Below are positions 25,493-63,965 of a stretch of 63,965 nt of DNA, one piece after another. The stretch is from the UHGV virus genome UHGV-0122909. One strand, written 5' to 3'. The notes under the pieces were generated by a model that worked only from the letters and a program-made list of their open reading frames with translations, was not told the DNA's origin and made no database searches. The position numbers were made by a program, and so were the translations under genes. This stretch comes from a virus. Numbering within the stretch: the first letter of the stretch is position 1; the number at the start of each line of letters is the position of its first letter.

Positions 25493-26976
25493 TGGCCAGA
25501 AGTTGCGTAACGGATCCACGTTGGCGCGAGCTGGTGGCGCTATATCGTTATGACTGGATTGCTGCCGCTGATGTTTTGTTCGGCAAAACACCTACCTGGC
25601 AGCAGGATCTGATTATTGAGTCTGTGCAGGAACAGGGTAGCAAGACATCTGTTTCGTCTGGTCACGGTACCGGGAAATCAGACATGACTTCTATCATGAT
25701 CATGTTGTTCATAATCATGTATCCCGGTGCCCGCGCCATTATCGTTGCGAACAAAATTCAGCAGGTAATGACCGGTATATTCAAGTACATCAAGATAAAC
25801 TGGGCTACTGCCACCAGCCGTTTTCCATGGCTTGCTGATTATTTTGTTCTGACAGAAACCGCTTTCTATGAGGTTACTGGTAAAGGTGTATGGACTGTAG
25901 TACCGAAGGGCTTTCGTCTGGGAAGTGAAGAAGCTCTCGCCGGTGAACACGCAGATCATCTTCTGTATATTATCGATGAAGCCTCCGGTGTCAGTGATAG
26001 AGCTTTCGGTATCATCACCGGTGCTCTTACCGGACAGGATAACCGCATCTTATTGCTGTCACAGCCTACACGCCCAAGCGGCTATTTCTACGATACACAC
26101 CATAAACTGGCCAAGCGTCCTGGTAACCCTGATGGCGTTTATACGGCGATCACGCTTAACAGTGAGGAATCACCGTTGGTAACGCCAGCATTTATCAAAA
26201 TGAAGCTGGCGGAGTACGGCGGGCGTGATAACCCTATGTACATGATTAAGGTACGCGGCCTATTCCCTAAATCACAGGATGGCTTCCTTCTTGGACGTGA
26301 TGAGGTTGAACGTGCAACGCGGCGGAAAGTCAAGATTGCCAAAGGATGGGGCTGGCTTGCATGTGTGGACGTTGCTGGTGGTACGGGACGGGATAAGTCC
26401 GTTATCAATATCATGATGGTGTCCGGCCAGCGAAATAAACGCCGTGTAATCAACTATCGAATGCTGGAATACACAGACGTTACAGAAACGCAGCTTGCCG
26501 CCAAAATTTTCGCAGAATGTAATCCTGAGCGATTCCCAAATATCACCATAGCGATAGACGGCGATGGCCTGGGTAAAGCAACGGCGGATCTGATGTACGA
26601 GTATTATGGTATTACCGTACAGCGTATACGCTGGGGTAAAAAGATGCATAGCCGTGAAGATAAGAGCCTGTACTTTGATAAACGTGCTTATGCCAACGTT
26701 CAAGCCGCAGAGGCCGTAAAATCTGGTCGTATGAGACTGGATAAGGGTAATGAAACTATTGAGGAAGCGTCGAAAATCCCTGTAGGGATTAACTCCGCAG
26801 GTCAATGGAAGGTGATGAGTAAGGAGGATATGAAGAAAAAACTCAACCTGCACTCACCAGACCATTGGGATACATATTGTTTCGCTATGCTGGCGGATTA
26901 TGTTCCCCAGGATGAAGTGCTTAGCGTCGAAGACGAAGCGCAGGTTGATGAAGCTCTGGCATGGCTTAATGAATGA
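25492..26976 (+). CDS. pacB: Terminase large subunit PacB
   Basis: 494 aa with Walker A-like GHGTGKS and a terminase-type nuclease C-terminus. Start overlaps the pacA stop. Confidence 0.85.
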
Positions 26977-52380: not shown

Positions 52381-55300
52381 ATGGTCAAACCAAACTGGGA
52401 TAACTTTAAAGCTAAATTTAGTGAGAATCCTCAAGGTAATTTTGAGTGGTTTTGCTACTTGTTGTTCTGTCAAGAATTCAAAATGCCCGCAGGTATATTT
52501 AGATATAAGAATCAATCTGGTATCGAAACTAATCCAATAACCAAAGATAATGAAATTATCGGTTGGCAATCTAAATTCTATGACACAAAATTGTCGGATA
52601 ACAAAGCTGATCTTATAGAAATGATTGAGAAAAGCAAAAAGGCTTATCCAGGATTAAGTAAAATCATTTTCTATACTAATCAAGAGTGGGGGCAGGGGAG
52701 AAAGTCCCATGAACCTGAAGGCGATAAGAACGCTGATAATTATTTGGAAACTGTCGGAAATAGTAACGATCCCAAAATAAAAATTGAAGTTGATCAGAAA
52801 GCATATGAGTCGGGTATCGAAATAGTATGGAGAGTTGCTAGTTTTTTTGAATCACCGTTTGTAATAGTTGAGAATGAAAAGATTGCTAAACATTTCTTCT
52901 CCCTTAATGAAAGCATCTTTGATTTATTAGAAGAAAAGCGCAAGCACACAGAAAATGTTTTATATGAAATTCAAACCAATATAGAGTTCAAAGACAGAAG
53001 TATTGAAATTGACAGACGACATTGTATAGAACTTCTACATGAGAATCTAGTTCAGAAAAAAATTGTCATCGTCAGCGGAGAAGGTGGGGTTGGAAAAACA
53101 GCAGTTATCAAAAAAATTTATGAAGCAGAAAAACAATACACTCCTTTCTATGTCTTTAAGGCTAGCGAGTTTAAAAAGGACAGTATTAATGAGCTATTCG
53201 GTGCGCATGGCTTAGACGATTTCTCTAATGCTCATCAAGACGAATTACGTAAAGTCATAGTCGTAGATTCTGCTGAAAAGCTTTTAGAACTGACCAATAT
53301 CGATCCTTTTAAAGAATTCCTGACTGTTTTAATAAAGGATAAATGGCAGGTTGTTTTCACAACCCGTAACAACTACTTGGCAGATCTGAACTATGCTTTC
53401 ATAGATATTTATAATATAACTCCTGAAAACTTAGTAATAAAGAACCTTGAACGCGGCGAGCTAATAGAGTTATCTGATAACAATGGATTTAGCCTTCCTC
53501 AAGATGTTCGATTATTAGAACTAATCAAAAATCCATTTTATCTAAGTGAATATTTGAGGTTCTATACCGGTGAAAGCATCGATTATGTGAGCTTCAAAGA
53601 AAAGCTTTGGAATAAGATTATTGTCAAAAATAAACCTTCTCGGGAGCAGTGTTTCTTAGCGACTGCTTTTCAGCGGGCTAGTGAGGGCCAATTTTTTGTC
53701 TCCCCGGCATGTGATACTGGAATTTTAGATGAGTTAGTTAAAGACGGAATTGTCGGCTATGAAGCTGCTGGTTACTTCATTACACATGATATATACGAGG
53801 AATGGGCATTAGAAAAGAAAATTTCTGTCGATTATATCCGTAAAGCGAACAATAACGAGTTCTTCGAAAAAATAGGAGAATCACTTCCTGTTCGCCGTAG
53901 TTTTCGGAATTGGATATCTGAACGATTGCTTTTAGATGACCAGTCCATAAAGCCTTTTATCGCAGAAATAGTCTGTGGAGAAGGAATATCAAATTTTTGG
54001 AAAGACGAGTTATGGGTAGCTGTCCTTCTTTCCGATAATTCAAGCATATTTTTTAATTACTTTAAAAGATATTTACTTAGTAGTGACCAGAATCTATTAA
54101 AAAGACTTACTTTCTTATTGAGGCTTGCTTGCAAGGACGTTGATTACGATCTGCTTAAACAGTTAGGTGTAAGTAATTCAGATCTGCTTTCCATTAAATA
54201 TGTTCTTACTAAGCCTAAGGGAACTGGTTGGCAGAGTGTGATCCAATTTATCTATGAAAATTTAGATGAAATAGGGATCAGAAATATTAATTTTATACTT
54301 CCTGTGATTCAGGAGTGGAATCAAAGAAACAAAGTGGGTGAAACGACTCGATTATCTAGTTTGATAGCCCTAAAATATTATCAATGGACTGTAGATGAGG
54401 ATGTCTATTTATCCGGAAGGGATAATGAGAAAAATATTCTGCATACGATTCTTCATGGGGCGGCCATGATTAAACCTGAAATGGAAGAGGTTTTAGTTAA
54501 GGTTCTTAAAAATAGGTGGAACGAGCACGGTACCCCATATTTCGACCTTATGACCTTAATCCTTACTGACTTAGATTCATATCCGGTTTGGGCATCTCTC
54601 CCGGAATATGTTCTACAATTGGCAGATCTGTTCTGGTATCGGCCACTTAAAGAAACAGGCGAACGTTATCACAGTATGGATATTGAAGATGAGTTCGGTC
54701 TATTTAGGTCTCATCACGACTATTATCCAGAAAGTCCATATCAGACTCCTATATATTGGTTACTACAATCACAGTTCAAAAAAACAATAGACTTTATTCT
54801 TGATTTTACGAACAAGACAACGATATGTTTTGCCCACTCCCATTTTGCTAAAAACGAAATTGAAGAAGTCGATGTCTTTATTGAAGAAGGAAAGTTTATA
54901 AAGCAATATATATGCAATCGTCTGTGGTGCTCATATCGAGGAACACAGGTCTCTACCTACTTACTTTCATCAATTCATATGGCATTGGAAAAATTTTTTC
55001 TTGAGAATTTTAAAAATGCAGACTCGAAAGTGTTGGAAAGTTGGCTTCTTTTCTTGTTAAGAAATACCAAGTCAGCTTCTATTTCTGCAGTAGTTACGAG
55101 TATTGTACTTGCATTCCCTGAGAAGACATTCAATGTAGCTAAAGTACTATTCCAAACAAAGGATTTCTTCCGTTTTGATATGAATCGAATGGTTCTAGAC
55201 AGAACACATAAAAGTTCATTAATCTCCCTCAGGGATGGCTTTGGCGGTACAGATTACAGAAACTCTTTGCACGAAGAAGATAGAATTAAAGCTTGCGATG

Positions 55301-57144
55301 ATGTGCATAGAAATACTTATCTTGAAAATCTTGCCTTGCATTATCAAATTTTCAGGAGTGAAAATGTAACGGAGAAAGATGTCATTGAAAGGCAACAAGT
55401 GCTCTGGGGTATTTTCGACAAATACTATAATCAGCTTCCAGATGAAGCTCAAGAAACTGAAGCCGATAAGACGTGGAGGCTCTGCTTGGCAAGAATGGAT
55501 CGGCGAAAGATGAAAATAACTACCAAGGAGAAAGATGAAGGGATTGAGATATCATTCAATCCTGAGATTGACCCTAAACTAAAGCAATATAGTGAGGAAG
55601 CAATAAAGAAAAACTCCGAGCATATGAAGTATGTAACGCTGAAACTATGGGCAAGCTATAAAAGAGAAAAGGATGAACGTTATAAGAATTATGGAATGTA
55701 TGAGGACAATCCGCAAATTGCTTTACAAGAGACCAAAGAAATAATAAAAAAGCTTAATGAGGAAGGGGGTGAAGATTTCAGACTATTAAATGGTAATATA
55801 CCAGCAGACGTTTGTTCTGTATTACTGTTAGATTACTTTAATCAGTTGAATAATGAAGAGAGAGAATATTGTAAAGATATTGTTCTAGCATATTCTCAAC
55901 TTCCGTTGAAGGAAGGCTATAATTATCAGGTACAAGATGGGACAACCTCGGCAATTTCAGCCTTACCCGTGATTTATCATAATTATCCAATGGAAAGGGA
56001 GACTATAAAAACAATATTACTTTTGACACTGTTTAATGACCACTCTATTGGAATGGCAGGTGGGCGCTACTCAGTATTTCCTAGTATGGTGATTCATAAA
56101 TTATGGCTAGACTATTTTGATGATATGCAGTCTCTATTGTTTGGTTTTTTGATTTTAAAGCCAAAGTATGTAATTCTTTCAAGAAAAATCATTCATGAAA
56201 GTTATCGTCAAGTAGACTATGACATTAAAAAAATAAATATTAATAAGGTGTTTTTAAATAACTATAAGCATTGCATATCAAATGTCATCGATAATAAAAT
56301 ATCTATAGATGATTTGGGAAGTATAGATATAGTTGATCTACATATTTTGAACACAGCTTTCCAATTAATTCCAGTTGATACTGTTAATATTGAACATAAG
56401 CAATTGGTTTCCTTAATTGTTAAAAGATTTTCTACAAGCCTATTGTCAAGTGTTCGAGAAGATAGAGTTGATTACGCTCTTCGGCAGTCTTTCTTGGAAA
56501 GATTTGCCTACTTTACGCTTCATGCGCCCGTGAGCGATATTCCCGATTATATAAAACCTTTTCTTGATGGTTTCAACGGTTCAGAGCCTATTTCAGAGTT
56601 ATTTAAAAAATTTATTCTCGTCGAAGATAGATTAAATACTTACGCCAAATTTTGGAAGGTTTGGGATTTGTTTTTTGATAAAGTGGTTACTTTGTGCAAG
56701 GATGGAGATAGGTATTGGTATGTAGATAAAATTATAAAAAGTTACCTTTTTGCTGAATCTCCATGGAAAGAAAACTCTAATGGTTGGCACACATTTAAAG
56801 ATAGCAATAGTCAATTCTTTTGCGATGTATCTAGGACTATGGGCCATTGCCCTTCAACTTTATATTCTCTTGCCAAATCTTTGAATAACATTGCCAGTTG
56901 CTATCTTAATCAAGGTATAACCTGGCTTTCAGAAATGTTGTCGGTTAATAAAAAGCTATGGGAAAAGAAATTGGAAAATGATACTGTTTATTTTTTAGAA
57001 TGTTTGGTTAGGCGGTATATTAACACTGAGCGTGAGCGAATTAGACGAACCAAACAGTTGAAAGAAGAGGTCTTAGTAATATTGGATTTTTTGGTAGAGA
57101 AAGGATCTGTTGTTGGTTATATGTCACGGGAAAATATTCTGTGA
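52381..57144 (+). CDS. Large STAND-type P-loop NTPase with N-terminal nuclease-like domain and ~1300-aa helical C-terminus (Avs-like)
   Basis: 1587 aa. Walker A IVIVSGEGGVGKTAV, Walker B KVIVVDSAEKL, then VVFTTRNNY (the hhhTTR STAND/NB-ARC signature). N-terminal ~220 aa contains ...DNEIIGWQSKFY..., a possible PD-(D/E)xK-like core. Strongly AT-rich. Confidence 0.7.
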   Translation: MVKPNWDNFKAKFSENPQGNFEWFCYLLFCQEFKMPAGIFRYKNQSGIETNPITKDNEIIGWQSKFYDTKLSDNKADLIEMIEKSKKAYPGLSKIIFYTNQEWGQGRKSHEPEGDKNADNYLETVGNSNDPKIKIEVDQKAYESGIEIVWRVASFFESPFVIVENEKIAKHFFSLNESIFDLLEEKRKHTENVLYEIQTNIEFKDRSIEIDRRHCIELLHENLVQKKIVIVSGEGGVGKTAVIKKIYEAEKQYTPFYVFKASEFKKDSINELFGAHGLDDFSNAHQDELRKVIVVDSAEKLLELTNIDPFKEFLTVLIKDKWQVVFTTRNNYLADLNYAFIDIYNITPENLVIKNLERGELIELSDNNGFSLPQDVRLLELIKNPFYLSEYLRFYTGESIDYVSFKEKLWNKIIVKNKPSREQCFLATAFQRASEGQFFVSPACDTGILDELVKDGIVGYEAAGYFITHDIYEEWALEKKISVDYIRKANNNEFFEKIGESLPVRRSFRNWISERLLLDDQSIKPFIAEIVCGEGISNFWKDELWVAVLLSDNSSIFFNYFKRYLLSSDQNLLKRLTFLLRLACKDVDYDLLKQLGVSNSDLLSIKYVLTKPKGTGWQSVIQFIYENLDEIGIRNINFILPVIQEWNQRNKVGETTRLSSLIALKYYQWTVDEDVYLSGRDNEKNILHTILHGAAMIKPEMEEVLVKVLKNRWNEHGTPYFDLMTLILTDLDSYPVWASLPEYVLQLADLFWYRPLKETGERYHSMDIEDEFGLFRSHHDYYPESPYQTPIYWLLQSQFKKTIDFILDFTNKTTICFAHSHFAKNEIEEVDVFIEEGKFIKQYICNRLWCSYRGTQVSTYLLSSIHMALEKFFLENFKNADSKVLESWLLFLLRNTKSASISAVVTSIVLAFPEKTFNVAKVLFQTKDFFRFDMNRMVLDRTHKSSLISLRDGFGGTDYRNSLHEEDRIKACDDVHRNTYLENLALHYQIFRSENVTEKDVIERQQVLWGIFDKYYNQLPDEAQETEADKTWRLCLARMDRRKMKITTKEKDEGIEISFNPEIDPKLKQYSEEAIKKNSEHMKYVTLKLWASYKREKDERYKNYGMYEDNPQIALQETKEIIKKLNEEGGEDFRLLNGNIPADVCSVLLLDYFNQLNNEEREYCKDIVLAYSQLPLKEGYNYQVQDGTTSAISALPVIYHNYPMERETIKTILLLTLFNDHSIGMAGGRYSVFPSMVIHKLWLDYFDDMQSLLFGFLILKPKYVILSRKIIHESYRQVDYDIKKININKVFLNNYKHCISNVIDNKISIDDLGSIDIVDLHILNTAFQLIPVDTVNIEHKQLVSLIVKRFSTSLLSSVREDRVDYALRQSFLERFAYFTLHAPVSDIPDYIKPFLDGFNGSEPISELFKKFILVEDRLNTYAKFWKVWDLFFDKVVTLCKDGDRYWYVDKIIKSYLFAESPWKENSNGWHTFKDSNSQFFCDVSRTMGHCPSTLYSLAKSLNNIASCYLNQGITWLSEMLSVNKKLWEKKLENDTVYFLECLVRRYINTERERIRRTKQLKEEVLVILDFLVEKGSVVGYMSRENIL

Positions 57145-57682: not shown

Positions 57683-58504
57683 TTAGAAATCCTGTTTTAC
57701 TTTATCCATCGTTAAAACTTTACTTATTATATAAGGATCATAATTTCTTATACTCATAAGGCAATTTATCAAATTGGAAACGTGGCTATCATCAGGAATA
57801 AGTATATATTTAATATCATCGAAAGAAAAACCAATGCCAAATTCAGAGAATTTTTTACTTAAGACGGCCTTCTGGTTAGGTTCCACCACTCGCTCTAAAT
57901 TTAGGCTAGGCCATAAATCGCCAACAAACGGATGCGGTACATATCTCCATTCTTTTTCGTCAGCGTAGATATAATTCTCAATGGTTTTTTCGTTCGTCCT
58001 TTCTAATTTCCCTTTATAATTTTTCATATAGCGTAATAAATTATAAAGGTCAGCGTACTCTTCTTTAAGGCTTTCAAAATACTTACGCTCTTTATTATCA
58101 AGGATATGCCTTTTCGACCATAGCGGAATTAACGCATCCTTTAGTTTTCTAATTCTTTTATTATACTTTGAAAATAATTCACTGCCTTGATTCATGTATA
58201 GAACGGGATGGAGATCATTTTTCTCAGCCCATTCTTTTGTTAACCCAAATCCAAATTCACCATATTTTCCACTATGATCTTTAATCTGAGAAAGCTTGAT
58301 GTCACAGAATGAAACCATTGGTACTGCGAAATTTCTTCTTCCTTTTACTCCGACTATGCGTTCACGGGCAAGAAATGGTTTAAAATAGAGTTCTGTTAAA
58401 ATGCTATAGAATGCCTCTTCATTTTTAGTAAAGTGAAACAACGTTGTTGGATGTAAACTATTAACTGCTTGTATAACTGTTTCTTGGTTTTCTATAGCAC
58501 TCAT
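57683..58504 (-). CDS. Hypothetical AT-rich protein, possibly abortive-infection-like
   Basis: 273 aa, convergent with the NTPase, strongly AT-rich. N-terminal TLFHFTK resembles some Abi-family proteins, but this is unverified. Confidence 0.4.
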   Translation of the reverse strand: MSAIENQETVIQAVNSLHPTTLFHFTKNEEAFYSILTELYFKPFLARERIVGVKGRRNFAVPMVSFCDIKLSQIKDHSGKYGEFGFGLTKEWAEKNDLHPVLYMNQGSELFSKYNKRIRKLKDALIPLWSKRHILDNKERKYFESLKEEYADLYNLLRYMKNYKGKLERTNEKTIENYIYADEKEWRYVPHPFVGDLWPSLNLERVVEPNQKAVLSKKFSEFGIGFSFDDIKYILIPDDSHVSNLINCLMSIRNYDPYIISKVLTMDKVKQDF

Positions 58505-58910: not shown

Positions 58911-59588
58911 ATGAATAACATGACAACGAAAGAGCTTTTGACGGCACTTCCAAAATACAAAAGCCATAAAACAGTTCGCGCCTCAAAAATCAAAGATATC
59001 GAAATTATCGCCCTAATGGATGTGGTCCTTTTTTGCAACATCGAAGTCGTTGAGCCAGAAGGGGTAAAAGTCCATGTTGATAAAATATTTTTGCAAAAAC
59101 ACCGACCAGAAATTGGCGGATATCTGGTCGCTTATGAGGACGGATCTCTGTCCTATTCACCAGAAAAAACATTTGAAGAAGGCTTTAGTCGGACTAACGA
59201 CTTCTTCGAAAATGGGGTATCGCTCAGCATTGAAGGTCACAATGGGGTGACATTCATTACAGCCAGGGACGTAACTATTTCTGCTGGCGGTATCGCTACT
59301 CTACAAGAAGAAATCGACCTTGAAGCAGCCGACTTTTCTGACGCGCTGATGTGGCTGAAGGATGGCAAGAAAGTTGCCCGACGCGGGTGGAACGGCGAAA
59401 ACCAATTCTGCTGGCTGGTTCCTGAAGGACAGTACCCGGCACGAATGGAAGCCATTAAGGGATATTTCCCCGGCGACCTCGTTCCGTATGGTGCTTATTT
59501 CGCCTTAAAAAATGCACAAGGTGTAGTTGTTCCGTGGGTTCCTTCTGTAGGCGACTTACTGGCATGTGACTGGTTTGTAGTGGAGTGA
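58911..59588 (+). CDS. Hypothetical protein with DUF2829-like (Tad2-like) C-terminal domain
   Basis: 225 aa. C-terminal ~80 aa LMWLKDGKKVARRGWNG...PWVPSVGDLLACDWFVV fits my recollection of DUF2829 (GW...PW.PS..DLLA.DW). Confidence 0.4.
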   Translation: MNNMTTKELLTALPKYKSHKTVRASKIKDIEIIALMDVVLFCNIEVVEPEGVKVHVDKIFLQKHRPEIGGYLVAYEDGSLSYSPEKTFEEGFSRTNDFFENGVSLSIEGHNGVTFITARDVTISAGGIATLQEEIDLEAADFSDALMWLKDGKKVARRGWNGENQFCWLVPEGQYPARMEAIKGYFPGDLVPYGAYFALKNAQGVVVPWVPSVGDLLACDWFVVE

Positions 59589-60412: not shown

Positions 60413-60721
60413 TCAATATACGATCTGGTCTACATGATCACCAAAATCATCGTCGTCGTCCTCATCGCCACCATCTACTGCTGGCCAATCAACAAACCAG
60501 CCAGCGTAAAGATGCAGCGTTCGGAGAACATCACTTGCGGGGGCATCAAGGGTGTTAACGAATCCCATATAGCTATTGGGATTTGCTCCAGCTATGGCTT
60601 CAGCGATCATGTCCTCGGTAATGTCACCGGAGATAATGCTTAAACGCCCGGAAACTTCTTCATTATCATCAAATTCGATAATGGCATCTCCACCTAATGG
60701 CGCTGCGATTTTAATCTGCAT
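60413..60721 (-). CDS. Small acidic protein (iddB position)
   Basis: 102 aa with a very acidic C-terminus (GGDEDDDDDFGDH), overlapping the upstream 995-aa gene stop. Confidence 0.4.
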   Translation of the reverse strand: MQIKIAAPLGGDAIIEFDDNEEVSGRLSIISGDITEDMIAEAIAGANPNSYMGFVNTLDAPASDVLRTLHLYAGWFVDWPAVDGGDEDDDDDFGDHVDQIVY

Positions 60722-63698
60722 TATTTAGCTCCTTTGCCACACCTAATAACAGTTCCAGCAATCCGTCACCATTCATCAGTGATGCGGCAGCGGCCTCTTT
60801 GTCATGATACAACTGAAGAGCCATAGAGAATACTTCCGTTGCTGACGTTTTGGAAATAGTCGGTGATTTCTGCCGAATTTTCCCGGTGTTACTTACTGAG
60901 GCTGGCGGGTATACCTTCGCCATATAAATATTACTCAATCGAGATCTGAAGCACCATTCAGGCTTGCCACGCCCACCGATATTGACGAAAGATGGCTTAT
61001 CCCCTTCAACATTGGCCTTCAGGAATGACCGGGCTTTCTCTAACAAACCAGGGTTACTGTACTCAAGATGATGACCCAGCTCGTGCCACAGTGCACTTGC
61101 ATTTTCATCGTTCAAATTGACAGCAACAACACCATTAAGATTTGCATATGCCCTTCCCTGGTGGTGAACTACCTTTGATAAGGTCGATATTTTCCCGCCG
61201 GTCAGGCGATAAATATCAGCAAGTTCCTTGCGCAGGTCTATCCCACCATTCTGTCCAGCGCGGACTTCTTCCACTTCTTCTGTGATAAAAGAGTCGGCCC
61301 ACTCAAGAGCTTTTTCTTCAGATACGGATGAGTTTGCGATCGCACTGTTCATGGCAGATAACACTTTCTCGTGGACCGAACCCATACTTCGCTGATTCAT
61401 TTGCCAGCGTGTCTGCGGGTTATATGAGAATCGCTTAAGTAGTTGGTCAAGATGCTCAAGTTCTTCTTCACTGACATACTTTTTAGCCTCACCAATAATG
61501 CCAGGGAGAATATTGCCGTTAGGATTAAACGCTCGCGAAAGGAAGAGTTTCAGCGCCCCCATGCCCTCCGATGCTTCAATATCACCAATAACCCGGTTAA
61601 CAATGGCCGCACTCTTCGGATTAGCATCCGCCAACGCTCTGGCTACAATTTGCAGGGACGATACGACCTCACGCTGCATATCCGTCCTGATCTCATCAAT
61701 AAACTCTGGCGTTATGCCGTGCTCTTTAAGGATATCCCTGCCTTCCGCCGTTACCCCATCGATATCACCGACATGTTTATTAACCCGACTTTGCAATGCC
61801 TTAAATGCCTTCAGAATTCCACGGGCATCATCCGCTTTACCAACGGCCTTCCTGAATGCTGGCAAGAAGTCTGAGTTAACCTCATTTTGTTGATCGGCCC
61901 ACTGAATGGAGGCTTCTTTCATCTCGTCCAGAGTCAGATCACCCAACGCGGTATGGTCTGTGAATATGAGCGACAACCTCTGAACCATTTCTGCCAATGG
62001 TGATGCCGAATGCGCCGCGCTAAGGAATGCTTTCACCCTGGTTGGGCGAATGGAAAACCAGTCAATAGCTGGTGGCATATCTCCGTTTTTTATCGCCTGC
62101 GCTATCTCGTCAAAGCCATCGCGCCCAAGGGAGGATGCGTGATTTAACAAGCCGCGAAGTAACGAATTGCTGATACCGAATAATCGGCACCATTTTTTCA
62201 CGTCGGCAACAGGCATTCGAACAAAATGCGCAAGCACTTGTACAAGCTGTTCATCCTGGGGATCTGTGCGGGAAAGCAGCCTGATCAGATGAATAATGTC
62301 TTTGATGCCGGATGCCCGATGTAATAGCAAACTGGTATACGGAGCAACACCGTTGTAACTACCGCCGGAAACGGACTCGAAAAGACCGCCGGATATCCCT
62401 TGCATGCCTTCGTTTTCCAGTTCCTGAGACACCTGGCGAAGGATATCCTGTAACGACACATCGCCGCCGCCAAACATATCCCCCAGCGCCTGGCCCTGGT
62501 GCTGTAACTCATCATTGATACGTTGAGCCATCAACTTAAAGGCGGTGGCCATACGCTTCGCGCTACGGTTATTCGCGACGATGAACAACGCGAGTGCTTT
62601 CACTTCCGGGGCCGTTTCGCTGAACATATCCCCCTGAGCAATAACATCGGTAATATGCTGGCCTGACTCCTTCGATTGCCTTACCAGGTCTACCGCATCT
62701 TTCAATGCCGCCAGCGCCTTTTTATCGAGGCTATCCGCTGTCTCAATGCCATCAACAATAGTTGTCACAGCCTGCTTGTGCGCTTCTCCTGATAAAGCCT
62801 GCATCTGGACAAAATCATTGGCTGCCGCATTAAGCGCCGTCAGAACATTACGCATATCCGGATCAGGTTCTTCTGCAACCATCCTTACCAGGCGCGCATC
62901 CTTATATGCCTTGGCAAAGATCGCGTTTTGTATACGGTCTACAAGTTGCCGTGTTGGTCGCCCATCTTCAGTTACAAGGCCAGCCGCCTGTGTGGCACCA
63001 ACTTGCGTCATAAATCCGCGAATAAACGCGTCATTACTGCGGCTAAGCAGATCTCCGCTTTCTGACGGGTTAAAAAGCGCCATCATCGCCGGTGTTATGC
63101 TGTCGGCATCAACAAAAGCTTTTTCACTGGCTGCCATTTCCTGAAGATCAGAAATATTTGAGTCCTTGGCAAACTGAACGCGGTCAACCTTAGTTAACCG
63201 GCGGCGCACCAGTACCGGAGCCGTCATTGATTCAACCTTTTCAGGAGGTATGCCGAATTCGGTCGCATGTTCAATCAGGTACTCACGATACCGATCCGCA
63301 TTGCCGTCCTGATAGGCTTTGATGATCCCCATGGTCCGTCCATTACCTGACTCAACGGCATTGTCCTCACCAATTATCGGCGCGCCATGGCTGGATAAAC
63401 CGGAATCAGTAAGCTGAGCAGGCCGCAAATCTTTGGATATCTGGTTAACCTGAAGAAGGCTGGATGCGCGGGTCCGGTCGCGCGGTTGAAGTTCCTGGGG
63501 ATAGTCAGGATTAATTTTCCCATCCAGAGTATTGGATACCAAAAGAGCTGAGGCATCGACGATATCAAACGCTGTTTTTACCTCGTCTCCCTTCGCTGTC
63601 ACCACATACGAAACCCGCCCATAATCGGGCAGGTTCTTTAGCAGCTCGATCAGCGTTTCTATGCTGGTGGCCATTACCACCTGATCGCTTAAGCTCAT
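60711..63698 (-). CDS. ddrB: DdrB-like large protein with HExxH metalloprotease-like motif
   Basis: 995 aa with ALWHELGHHLEYSNPG. Size and position fit P1 ddrB. Symbol is tentative. Confidence 0.5.
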   Translation of the reverse strand: MSLSDQVVMATSIETLIELLKNLPDYGRVSYVVTAKGDEVKTAFDIVDASALLVSNTLDGKINPDYPQELQPRDRTRASSLLQVNQISKDLRPAQLTDSGLSSHGAPIIGEDNAVESGNGRTMGIIKAYQDGNADRYREYLIEHATEFGIPPEKVESMTAPVLVRRRLTKVDRVQFAKDSNISDLQEMAASEKAFVDADSITPAMMALFNPSESGDLLSRSNDAFIRGFMTQVGATQAAGLVTEDGRPTRQLVDRIQNAIFAKAYKDARLVRMVAEEPDPDMRNVLTALNAAANDFVQMQALSGEAHKQAVTTIVDGIETADSLDKKALAALKDAVDLVRQSKESGQHITDVIAQGDMFSETAPEVKALALFIVANNRSAKRMATAFKLMAQRINDELQHQGQALGDMFGGGDVSLQDILRQVSQELENEGMQGISGGLFESVSGGSYNGVAPYTSLLLHRASGIKDIIHLIRLLSRTDPQDEQLVQVLAHFVRMPVADVKKWCRLFGISNSLLRGLLNHASSLGRDGFDEIAQAIKNGDMPPAIDWFSIRPTRVKAFLSAAHSASPLAEMVQRLSLIFTDHTALGDLTLDEMKEASIQWADQQNEVNSDFLPAFRKAVGKADDARGILKAFKALQSRVNKHVGDIDGVTAEGRDILKEHGITPEFIDEIRTDMQREVVSSLQIVARALADANPKSAAIVNRVIGDIEASEGMGALKLFLSRAFNPNGNILPGIIGEAKKYVSEEELEHLDQLLKRFSYNPQTRWQMNQRSMGSVHEKVLSAMNSAIANSSVSEEKALEWADSFITEEVEEVRAGQNGGIDLRKELADIYRLTGGKISTLSKVVHHQGRAYANLNGVVAVNLNDENASALWHELGHHLEYSNPGLLEKARSFLKANVEGDKPSFVNIGGRGKPEWCFRSRLSNIYMAKVYPPASVSNTGKIRQKSPTISKTSATEVFSMALQLYHDKEAAAASLMNGDGLLELLLGVAKELNNAD

Positions 63699-63797
63699 CC
63701 CTGTTACGCCTTATCCAATGTGCCGCCCCCTACGCTCCTCATAGTGGGGATATAAGGCACAGTTTTCCTCCCGGCTATTTTTGCTTAAAATAGTGAC

Positions 63798-63965
63798 ATG
63801 AAACAACAGGTGTCATTCAAATTCCGGTTAAAACCAGATGGTCAACAGGAGCGTCAAATGAGGCGCTTTGCCGGAGCTTGTCGTTTCGTTTTCAACCGTG
63901 CTCTGGCGCTTCAGAATGAGAATCATGAGGCCGGTAATAAATACATCCCTTACGGGAAAATGGCT
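63798..63965 (+). CDS. tnpB: IS200/IS605-family TnpB (OrfB) transposase-like, N-terminal fragment (runs off the window)
   Basis: MKQQVSFKFRLKPDGQQERQMRRFAGACRFVFNRALALQNENHEAGNKYIPYGKMA..., the typical TnpB N-terminus. No stop before the window end, so absent from the ORF track. Confidence 0.6.
   Translation, partial: MKQQVSFKFRLKPDGQQERQMRRFAGACRFVFNRALALQNENHEAGNKYIPYGKMA

Follow-up and report, generated by a model that had tools for sequence, protein, structure and literature searches.

Left end and tnpB start of what is very probably an IS609-like element in the darA operon of an RCS47-type P1-like phage-plasmid

Work on ISDra2 and IS608 has set the paradigm for insertion sequences of the IS200/IS605 type, in which TnpB acts with an omega-RNA whose guide comes from the flank of the right end. 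The target, or TAM, is TTGAT for ISDra2 and TTAC for IS608, and the pairing of the last target base with the base 5' of the hairpin foot is the guide/cleavage-site rule of IS608. A copy closer to the one studied here is the IS609 reported in the P1-like plasmid pJIE250-3, and an 'IS609-like sequence' has been placed at 25,544-26,881 of pSvP1 (PMC6906374). The left cleavage site of IS609 is given as TTAT and the right one as TCAA (PMC6906374, Venturini et al. 2019). In searches of the literature we met no paper that characterises an IS609/InsQ TnpB, and nothing specific on TnpB in phage-plasmids.

The window, i.e. the whole stretch of DNA that was analysed (63,965 nt, virus genome UHGV-0122909), is a P1-like phage-plasmid whose nearest relative is Escherichia phage RCS47. 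We are highly confident that 63715-63965 is the left end plus the first 56 tnpB codons of an IS609-like element, inserted in the darA operon of an RCS47-type P1-like phage-plasmid. Only 251 nt of the element fall inside the window. They are 99-100% identical to the nearest relatives and 98.8% identical to RCS47. Alignment to RCS47 and to the left ends of the family assigns 63715-63797 (plus strand) to an 83-nt left end of an element of 1,335 bp, the length seen in relatives. The ATG of tnpB follows this left end directly, with no tnpA in between. From that ATG (63798-63800) the plus-strand frame stays open to 63965 and gives 56 codons (MKQQVSFKFRLKPDGQQERQMRRFAGACRFVFNRALALQNENHEAGNKYIPYGKMA), which represent the HTH/WED N-terminal region of an insQ-type RNA-guided endonuclease. 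The 56 residues match the Pfam family PF12323 (HTH_OrfB_IS605) over the full domain with E 1.2e-17 and 63.5 bits, against a cut-off of 21 bits, and they match the N-termini of the NCBIfam models guided_TnpB (NF040570) and IS200_TnpB (NF038281). The claim of the earlier note that a plus-strand frame from 63798 has a typical TnpB N-terminus and runs off the end of the sequence is thereby upheld, and a PF12323 match at E 1e-17 rules out a chance open reading frame at 63798.

The gene next to the element, at 60711-63698 on the minus strand, encodes a 995-residue product that is identical to P1 DdrB at 985 of 995 residues (99%) and contains the PF18763 ddrB-ParB domain (E 1.8e-39, Pfam). The adjoining gene had been described as ddrB-like; it is ddrB itself, with which the P1 darA antirestriction/lysis operon ends. 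In P1, 12 nt lie between the ddrA stop codon and the ddrB start. The same spacer is retained here at 63699-63710 (minus strand) in an identical layout, and it includes the ddrB ribosome-binding region, with AACAGGG ahead of the ATG. Next to it stands TTAT (63711-63714, plus strand), the insertion target of the element, which would be its left cleavage site and putative TAM. Read on the minus strand, TTAT is the old ddrA stop codon TAA together with the third base of the last ddrA codon. Homology to P1 stops at 63714, one base past the ddrA stop codon, and the element starts at 63715. By megablast against phages, homology to P1, P7 and a dozen further punaviruses breaks off at 63714; that to RCS47, SJ46 and vB_EcoM-813R1 extends to the last position of the window. 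The element lies on the strand opposite to the darA operon, 16 nt upstream of the ddrB start and within the last ddrA codon. A start of an IS200/IS605 tnpB in the place of ddrA had been proposed from the letters alone, and it holds, as ddrA abuts ddrB exactly there in P1.

Comparison of empty and occupied sites identifies the type of insertion. The empty site of P1 reads ...CCTTAT/GCTGCCTCTTTAATG... (a slash marks the junction), that is TTAT/GCTGCC. The occupied site of RCS47 reads ...CCTTAT/CCAATGTGCCG...(1,335 bp)...GGAGGATGTCAC/GCTGCCTCTTTAATG..., that is TTAT/IS/GCTGCC. The two sites reveal no target duplication, and the left junction of the window is identical to that of RCS47. There are no terminal inverted repeats at the ddrA/ddrB element. 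An insertion flanked by a tetranucleotide, with neither target duplication nor terminal inverted repeats, is the hallmark of the IS200/IS605 type. TTAT also flanks most left ends of the IS609-like family.

The copies in pSvP1, RCS47 and SJ46 are placed like the studied one: between ddrB and ddrA they occupy exactly the same nucleotide position, in the same orientation, and each is 1,335 bp long. For pSvP1, the fetched sequence shows that the published copy shares the ddrB/ddrA site of ours, and the records of RCS47 and SJ46 annotate the gene of the element as insQ. The IS609 of pJIE250-3 resembles the studied copy in carrying tnpB alone, in its left end of ~83 nt that is followed by the ATG, and in the TTAT on its left. 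However, it occupies a different P1 site, and its left end (TAAAA-TCCCGTCC-TTCA-GGGAGGGG) and right end (...GTCAA) differ from those of the ddrA/ddrB copy, in which the inner left end is rewritten and the right end is ...GTCAC. The insQ of E. coli chromosomes, in the order ydcL-tnpA'-insQ-ydcO with a truncated copy near ybcM, has ~95% nucleotide identity in tnpB from codon 6 onwards. It shares with the studied element the same right end, a TTAT-flanked left end, the outer helix and the GGGGATATAAGG motif, but it has a divergent tnpA, either a pseudogene or intact, between the left end and tnpB. ISDra2 and IS608 share with the ddrA/ddrB element the subterminal hairpins, a tetranucleotide target on the 5' side of the left end, and the lack of target duplication. 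Unlike them, the studied copy has TTAT as target and putative TAM, and no tnpA. In tblastn searches with IS200/IS605 TnpA, no match was found across the 64 kb of the window or in the flanking sequences fetched from relatives, and the rest of the element does not appear elsewhere in the window, as a wrap-around would have it. An autonomous element of the IS605/IS608 type can be rejected, since a Y1 (HUH) tnpA is missing and tnpB begins 83 nt from the end of the element.

The left end contains two nested helices. The outer one pairs TGTGCC (63719-63724) with GGCACA (63756-63761) on the plus strand, as supported by the DNA fold and by covariation, and it encloses the inner hairpin CCCCCTACGCTCCTCATAGTGGGG at 63726-63749. 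This hairpin folds by CCCC/GGGG plus AC/GT with a bulged T, and it occupies the position of the imperfect palindrome that TnpA recognises in the family. Its folding energy is no better than that of shuffled sequences (z -1.2 to -1.6). Because the energy alone is not significant, the relevance of the hairpin rests on covariation within the family. Left ends taken from 80 loci of GTDB species representatives have the consensus TTAT/CCGGTGCGCCG-TAAAA-CCCCGTCC-TTCA-GGGCGGGG-ATATAAGGCGCGG. Both helices covary among family left ends: seven pairs are changed on both sides and 93% of cells are paired, a level that 0 of 500 shuffles reach. For the outer helix the covariation extends over 26 left ends of the family, and one of its pairs is a compensatory T-A in the studied copy. 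An end hairpin had been suggested at about 63727-63750. That sequence is real and homologous to the left-end hairpin of the IS609 family, but its position is shifted by one base to the left.

The studied left end retains the outer helix and the 3' GGGG-ATATAAGG, and the TAAAA guide and the 5' arm CCCCGTCC are replaced by CCCCCTACGCTCCTCATAGT. The resulting hairpin does not resemble the one at the right end of the ddrA/ddrB element in RCS47, TCCACGCCC-TTCG-GGGCGTGGA. A guide tetranucleotide together with a left-end palindrome resembling the right-end palindrome is not found in the studied copy. In the rest of the family, the final base of the target covaries with the guide base directly 5' of the hairpin foot, in the manner of IS608, with TTAT accompanied by ...AAAA, and TTAC by ...AAAG in three loci (L005, L020, L024). 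We read the studied left end, from its alignment to these relatives, as a degenerate one and not as a sign of another family. At the other end of the element, the right-end hairpin covaries across the family as well, with five pairs changed on both sides, which again 0 of 500 shuffles reach. All 29 relatives compared have an element that ends in A (TCAA); the copies of RCS47 and SJ46 end in C (TCAC).

What lies beyond 63965 can be read from five relatives in which the element was followed from end to end: RCS47, SJ46, the E. coli FDAARGOS_497 plasmid, E. albertii pEA40_1 and pSvP1. Each of them carries an IS of 1,335 bp at the identical site. In the five, the gene order is hxr, ddrB, the IS with tnpB on the opposite strand, ddrA, darA, hdf, lydB and lydA. 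In all five tnpB is a full open reading frame of 402 residues. Its product contains PF01385 (OrfB_IS605, RuvC; E 1.5e-34) and PF07282 (TNB zinc ribbon; E 2.4e-24), and scores 393 bits against NF040570. The RuvC-like and zinc-finger domains on whose presence downstream the earlier note had staked its reading are thus encoded, in close relatives, in this 402-residue TnpB. The protein aligns with ISDra2 TnpB (8bf8, 8exa, 8h1j) over residues 5-376 (E 9e-52), and within this range the RuvC D-E-D residues and the zinc ribbon of ISDra2 TnpB are conserved in the full-length relative. In the alignment, which carries no residue numbers, GLDAG, IEDL and NADVNGA stand opposite the acidic motifs GVDVG, GTEHL and DRDENAA of ISDra2 TnpB, which we take to be its RuvC residues D191/E278/D361. 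In the relatives' own numbering the motifs are GLDAG181, IEDL266 and NADVNGA361, and two CxxC pairs are present (CACC334 and CQVC353). An intact tnpB is likely in the studied genome too, judging from these relatives. vB_EcoM-813R1 has the IS at the identical site with 1,333 bp, and its tnpB is frameshifted (two tblastn pieces; L088 4698-5905). In the record of that phage ddrB and darA are split too, which may reflect sequencing error or decay. An Rfam scan of the RCS47 copy at a permissive threshold returned only sub-threshold matches to HgcC, RAGATH-18 and sot0042, at the right end. All of these matches fall on the 3' end of tnpB and the right end of the IS (L001 10334-10463). The three families probably overlap TnpB omega-RNA scaffolds.

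In the relatives, the element leaves the antirestriction genes whole. In every relative examined, ddrA, darA and hdf are intact directly beyond the IS, with lydB next. The insertion splits the last ddrA codon (GC/A) and converts GCA TAA into GCG TGA (RCS47, L001 10447-10452). On the strand of ddrA the conserved TCA at the right end of the IS provides the stop codon TGA, which leaves DdrA with its 121 residues and its C-terminus ...IKEAA in the relatives. A deletion of ddrA is ruled out by its presence in all relatives examined. The earlier note had considered that antirestriction genes were disrupted or displaced. Displacement stands, as 1.3 kb with an antisense gene now lies in between. Disruption does not, and the proposed look further on finds ddrA and darA intact in RCS47, SJ46, the FDAARGOS_497 plasmid, pEA40_1 and pSvP1. 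To judge by the relatives, the antirestriction genes are separated from ddrB and not destroyed. ddrB would then have to be transcribed either by read-through of the IS from the late promoter or from a start inside the IS. A weak sigma-70-like match, ATGACA-18-TATTTT at 63787-63816 on the minus strand, points out of the IS to ddrB and has no statistical support. Scans for promoters and terminators gave nothing above expectation, and the number of sites in the RCS47 scan equals the shuffle expectation.

On the far side of ddrB the window holds further genes of note. The variable isaA/isaB region beside the antirestriction operon contains a gene at 58911-59588 (plus strand) for a 225-residue protein whose C-terminal domain is Tad2-like (Thoeris anti-defence 2; PF11195, E 1.6e-22). 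A 1,587-residue open reading frame at 52381-57144 (plus strand), with only sub-threshold matches to STAND/NB-ARC NTPases, adjoins an AbiGi-family gene at 57683-58504 (minus strand; PF10899, E 1e-24). These two look like an island of defence cargo, which P1 lacks at that place.

The ddrB-IS junction occurs in 75 plasmids of PLSDB, and the left-end variant of the studied copy likewise in 75. An uninterrupted ddrA-ddrB junction is found in 378, so that ~17% of junctions, or about one in six P1-like plasmids, are occupied. In IMG/VR, eight contigs contain the left-end variant, all with the same left flank. Six of the eight reach the right end and have the same right flank and an IS of 1,335 bp; the other two end earlier. 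The left-end variant was found only at the ddrA/ddrB site. These distributions indicate a single ancestral insertion that has been inherited. The confinement of the variant to one site, the missing tnpA and the altered ends together suggest one insertion that no longer transposes, and by the rules established for IS608 the copy at ddrA/ddrB is probably no longer mobile.

Two alleles of the element occur at this site, an RCS47-type and an SJ46-type, with a divergence of 3.8%, and tnpB is intact over 402 codons in each. Their tnpB genes differ by 22 synonymous and 16 non-synonymous codon changes, with no stops. Variable sites within the IS lie in blocks, and some of these are common to chromosomal copies (the SJ46-type allele; patches in two IMG/VR copies), a pattern that suggests gene conversion between copies of the IS. 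The IS is identical or 1 nt apart in five elements (L001, L085, L095, L098, L099) whose ddrB/darA flanks are ~2% apart. The flank haplotypes form a patchwork common to IS-less phages, e.g. P1, P7, JL22 and Ro157c2YLVW. In a comparison of 10 occupied and 7 empty loci, by SNP density and by the haplotypes of the flanks, the IS proved much less diverse than its flanks. No IS-specific co-conversion tract was visible among these loci, as the proximal 170 nt of the flank form a haplotype common to IS-less phages too.

The position at which the window ends has a probable explanation of its own. Four contigs from other assemblies encode an identical DdrB, and all four end inside tnpB, after 64, 72, 286 and 308 codons. 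The left flanks of three of the four are identical to the window. Chromosomal relatives of the element occur in ~5,000 of 5,426 complete E. coli genomes, which makes it a multi-copy repeat in any E. coli host. GTDB draft contigs of 1.1-1.75 kb (L015, L023, L025, L029, L031) each consist of a single IS609-like element, and such contigs imply that the element routinely breaks assemblies. The terminal bases of the window are of a different type from those before them. At about 13 distinguishing sites up to 63902 the bases are all of the phage-plasmid type, and the last three sites are of the chromosomal insQ type (plus strand; T at 63938 and GG at 63954-63955, where phage-plasmid copies have A and AC). 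Over the last 86 nt, chromosomal copies give a closer match (98.8%) than do those of plasmids. We infer that the window probably ends at a slightly chimeric contig break inside a multi-copy repeat.

The same switch of type after 63902 could be taken as a real recombination of the phage-plasmid IS with chromosomal insQ, either by gene conversion or by chromosomal integration via the common IS. Mosaic tracts do exist in finished sequences, namely in the SJ46-type allele and in two IMG/VR copies, and the terminal 86 nt are closer to chromosomal than to plasmid copies. We nonetheless regard this reading as unlikely. Compared base by base, the T...GG alleles are absent from RCS47, SJ46, E. albertii pEA40_1, 813R1 and the four identical-DdrB contigs, i.e. 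from every other same-site copy examined. Searches of phages, PLSDB plasmids and E. coli genomes gave no identical public record; the best of the full-coverage matches listed reaches 99.2%, and its differences from the window are the three terminal bases. In addition, the three alleles all fall in the last 28 nt, a stretch in which assemblers mix reads of different repeat copies, and other assemblies of the lineage simply break inside the IS. With a chimeric contig break as the preferred reading, the sequence past 63965 could still differ from that of RCS47, given three alleles of chromosomal type in the last 30 nt.

For the element itself, the rules of the family suggest the following course. 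The original insertion, a single one 3' of TTAT, would have been made by TnpA-catalysed single-strand 'peel and paste' without target duplication. By analogy with related elements, the TnpA may have been supplied in trans or lost since. As in ISDra2 and IS608, TnpB would bind an omega-RNA transcribed from the 3' end of tnpB and the right end, the guide of which would be the adjacent 3' sequence of ddrA, GCTGCCTCTTTAATGTTGGC, and the predicted nuclease would recognise TTAT as its TAM. An intact tnpB should, on the model of ISDra2 TnpB, express an RNA-guided nuclease. The empty junction of P1 holds exactly TTAT+GCTGCCTCTTTAATGTTGGC, a perfect TTAT plus a 20-nt match to the flank of the IS right end, which makes IS-less relatives the predicted programmed target.

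It is possible on these grounds to see the element as a retained, domesticated TnpB/omega-RNA module, which does not transpose and persists by cutting empty ddrA/ddrB junctions, in homing or in competition between plasmids. Degenerate ends combined with a tnpB that is intact in two alleles 3.8% apart would agree with such a role, as would the perfect TTAT plus 20-nt match in P1 and the presence of a near-identical IS in five elements with flanks ~2% divergent, in haplotypes common to IS-less phages. However, ordinary homologous recombination among the mosaic P1-like genomes gives the same pattern, and no co-conversion tract specific to the IS is visible. Furthermore, only about 17% of junctions are occupied, and the targeting of the empty donor site is generic to every IS200/IS605 insertion. 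Low IS diversity in varied flanks is compatible with homing and with ordinary recombination around a young insertion equally, and we consider domestication improbable. The sharper form of the idea, that a transposition-dead IS609 copy is kept because it cuts TTAT+GCTGCCTCTTTAATGTTGGC in IS-less relatives and so acts either in homing drive or as a weapon of one incompatible phage-plasmid against another, strikes us as quite doubtful on the sequence comparisons. If true, it would explain how a near-invariant IS comes to lie in several flank haplotypes that have diverged, in E. coli, E. albertii and Salmonella alike.

A final alternative, that the frame is a truncated, HTH-only tnpB stub like the chromosomal fragment by ybcM and not the start of a complete IS, would account for the end after 56 codons and has precedents in the ~97-codon stub of E. 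coli chromosomes (annotated 'helix-turn-helix domain-containing protein') and in 813R1, which shows that same-site copies can decay, but it is very improbable, since the four independent identical-DdrB contigs run uninterrupted up to 308 codons, three of the four being identical to the RCS47 IS there, and five complete relatives encode the 402-residue frame, with six IMG/VR contigs holding a 1,335-bp IS.

The element described here, the start of an IS609-like insertion between ddrB and ddrA, is an ordinary and already known one: it is annotated in GenBank/RefSeq (RCS47, SJ46 and many plasmids), and the pSvP1 copy was published in 2019. The insertion marks a sub-lineage that comprises about one in six of the P1-like plasmids in PLSDB, and it explains why draft assemblies of RCS47-type phage-plasmids break at ddrA/ddrB. 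With the darA operon split by an antisense tnpB, the expression of ddrB, and hence antirestriction against EcoB/EcoK, may differ from that of P1. An apparently immobile copy with an intact RNA-guided nuclease that its position would program against IS-less relatives would be a natural setting in which to look for TnpB-driven homing.
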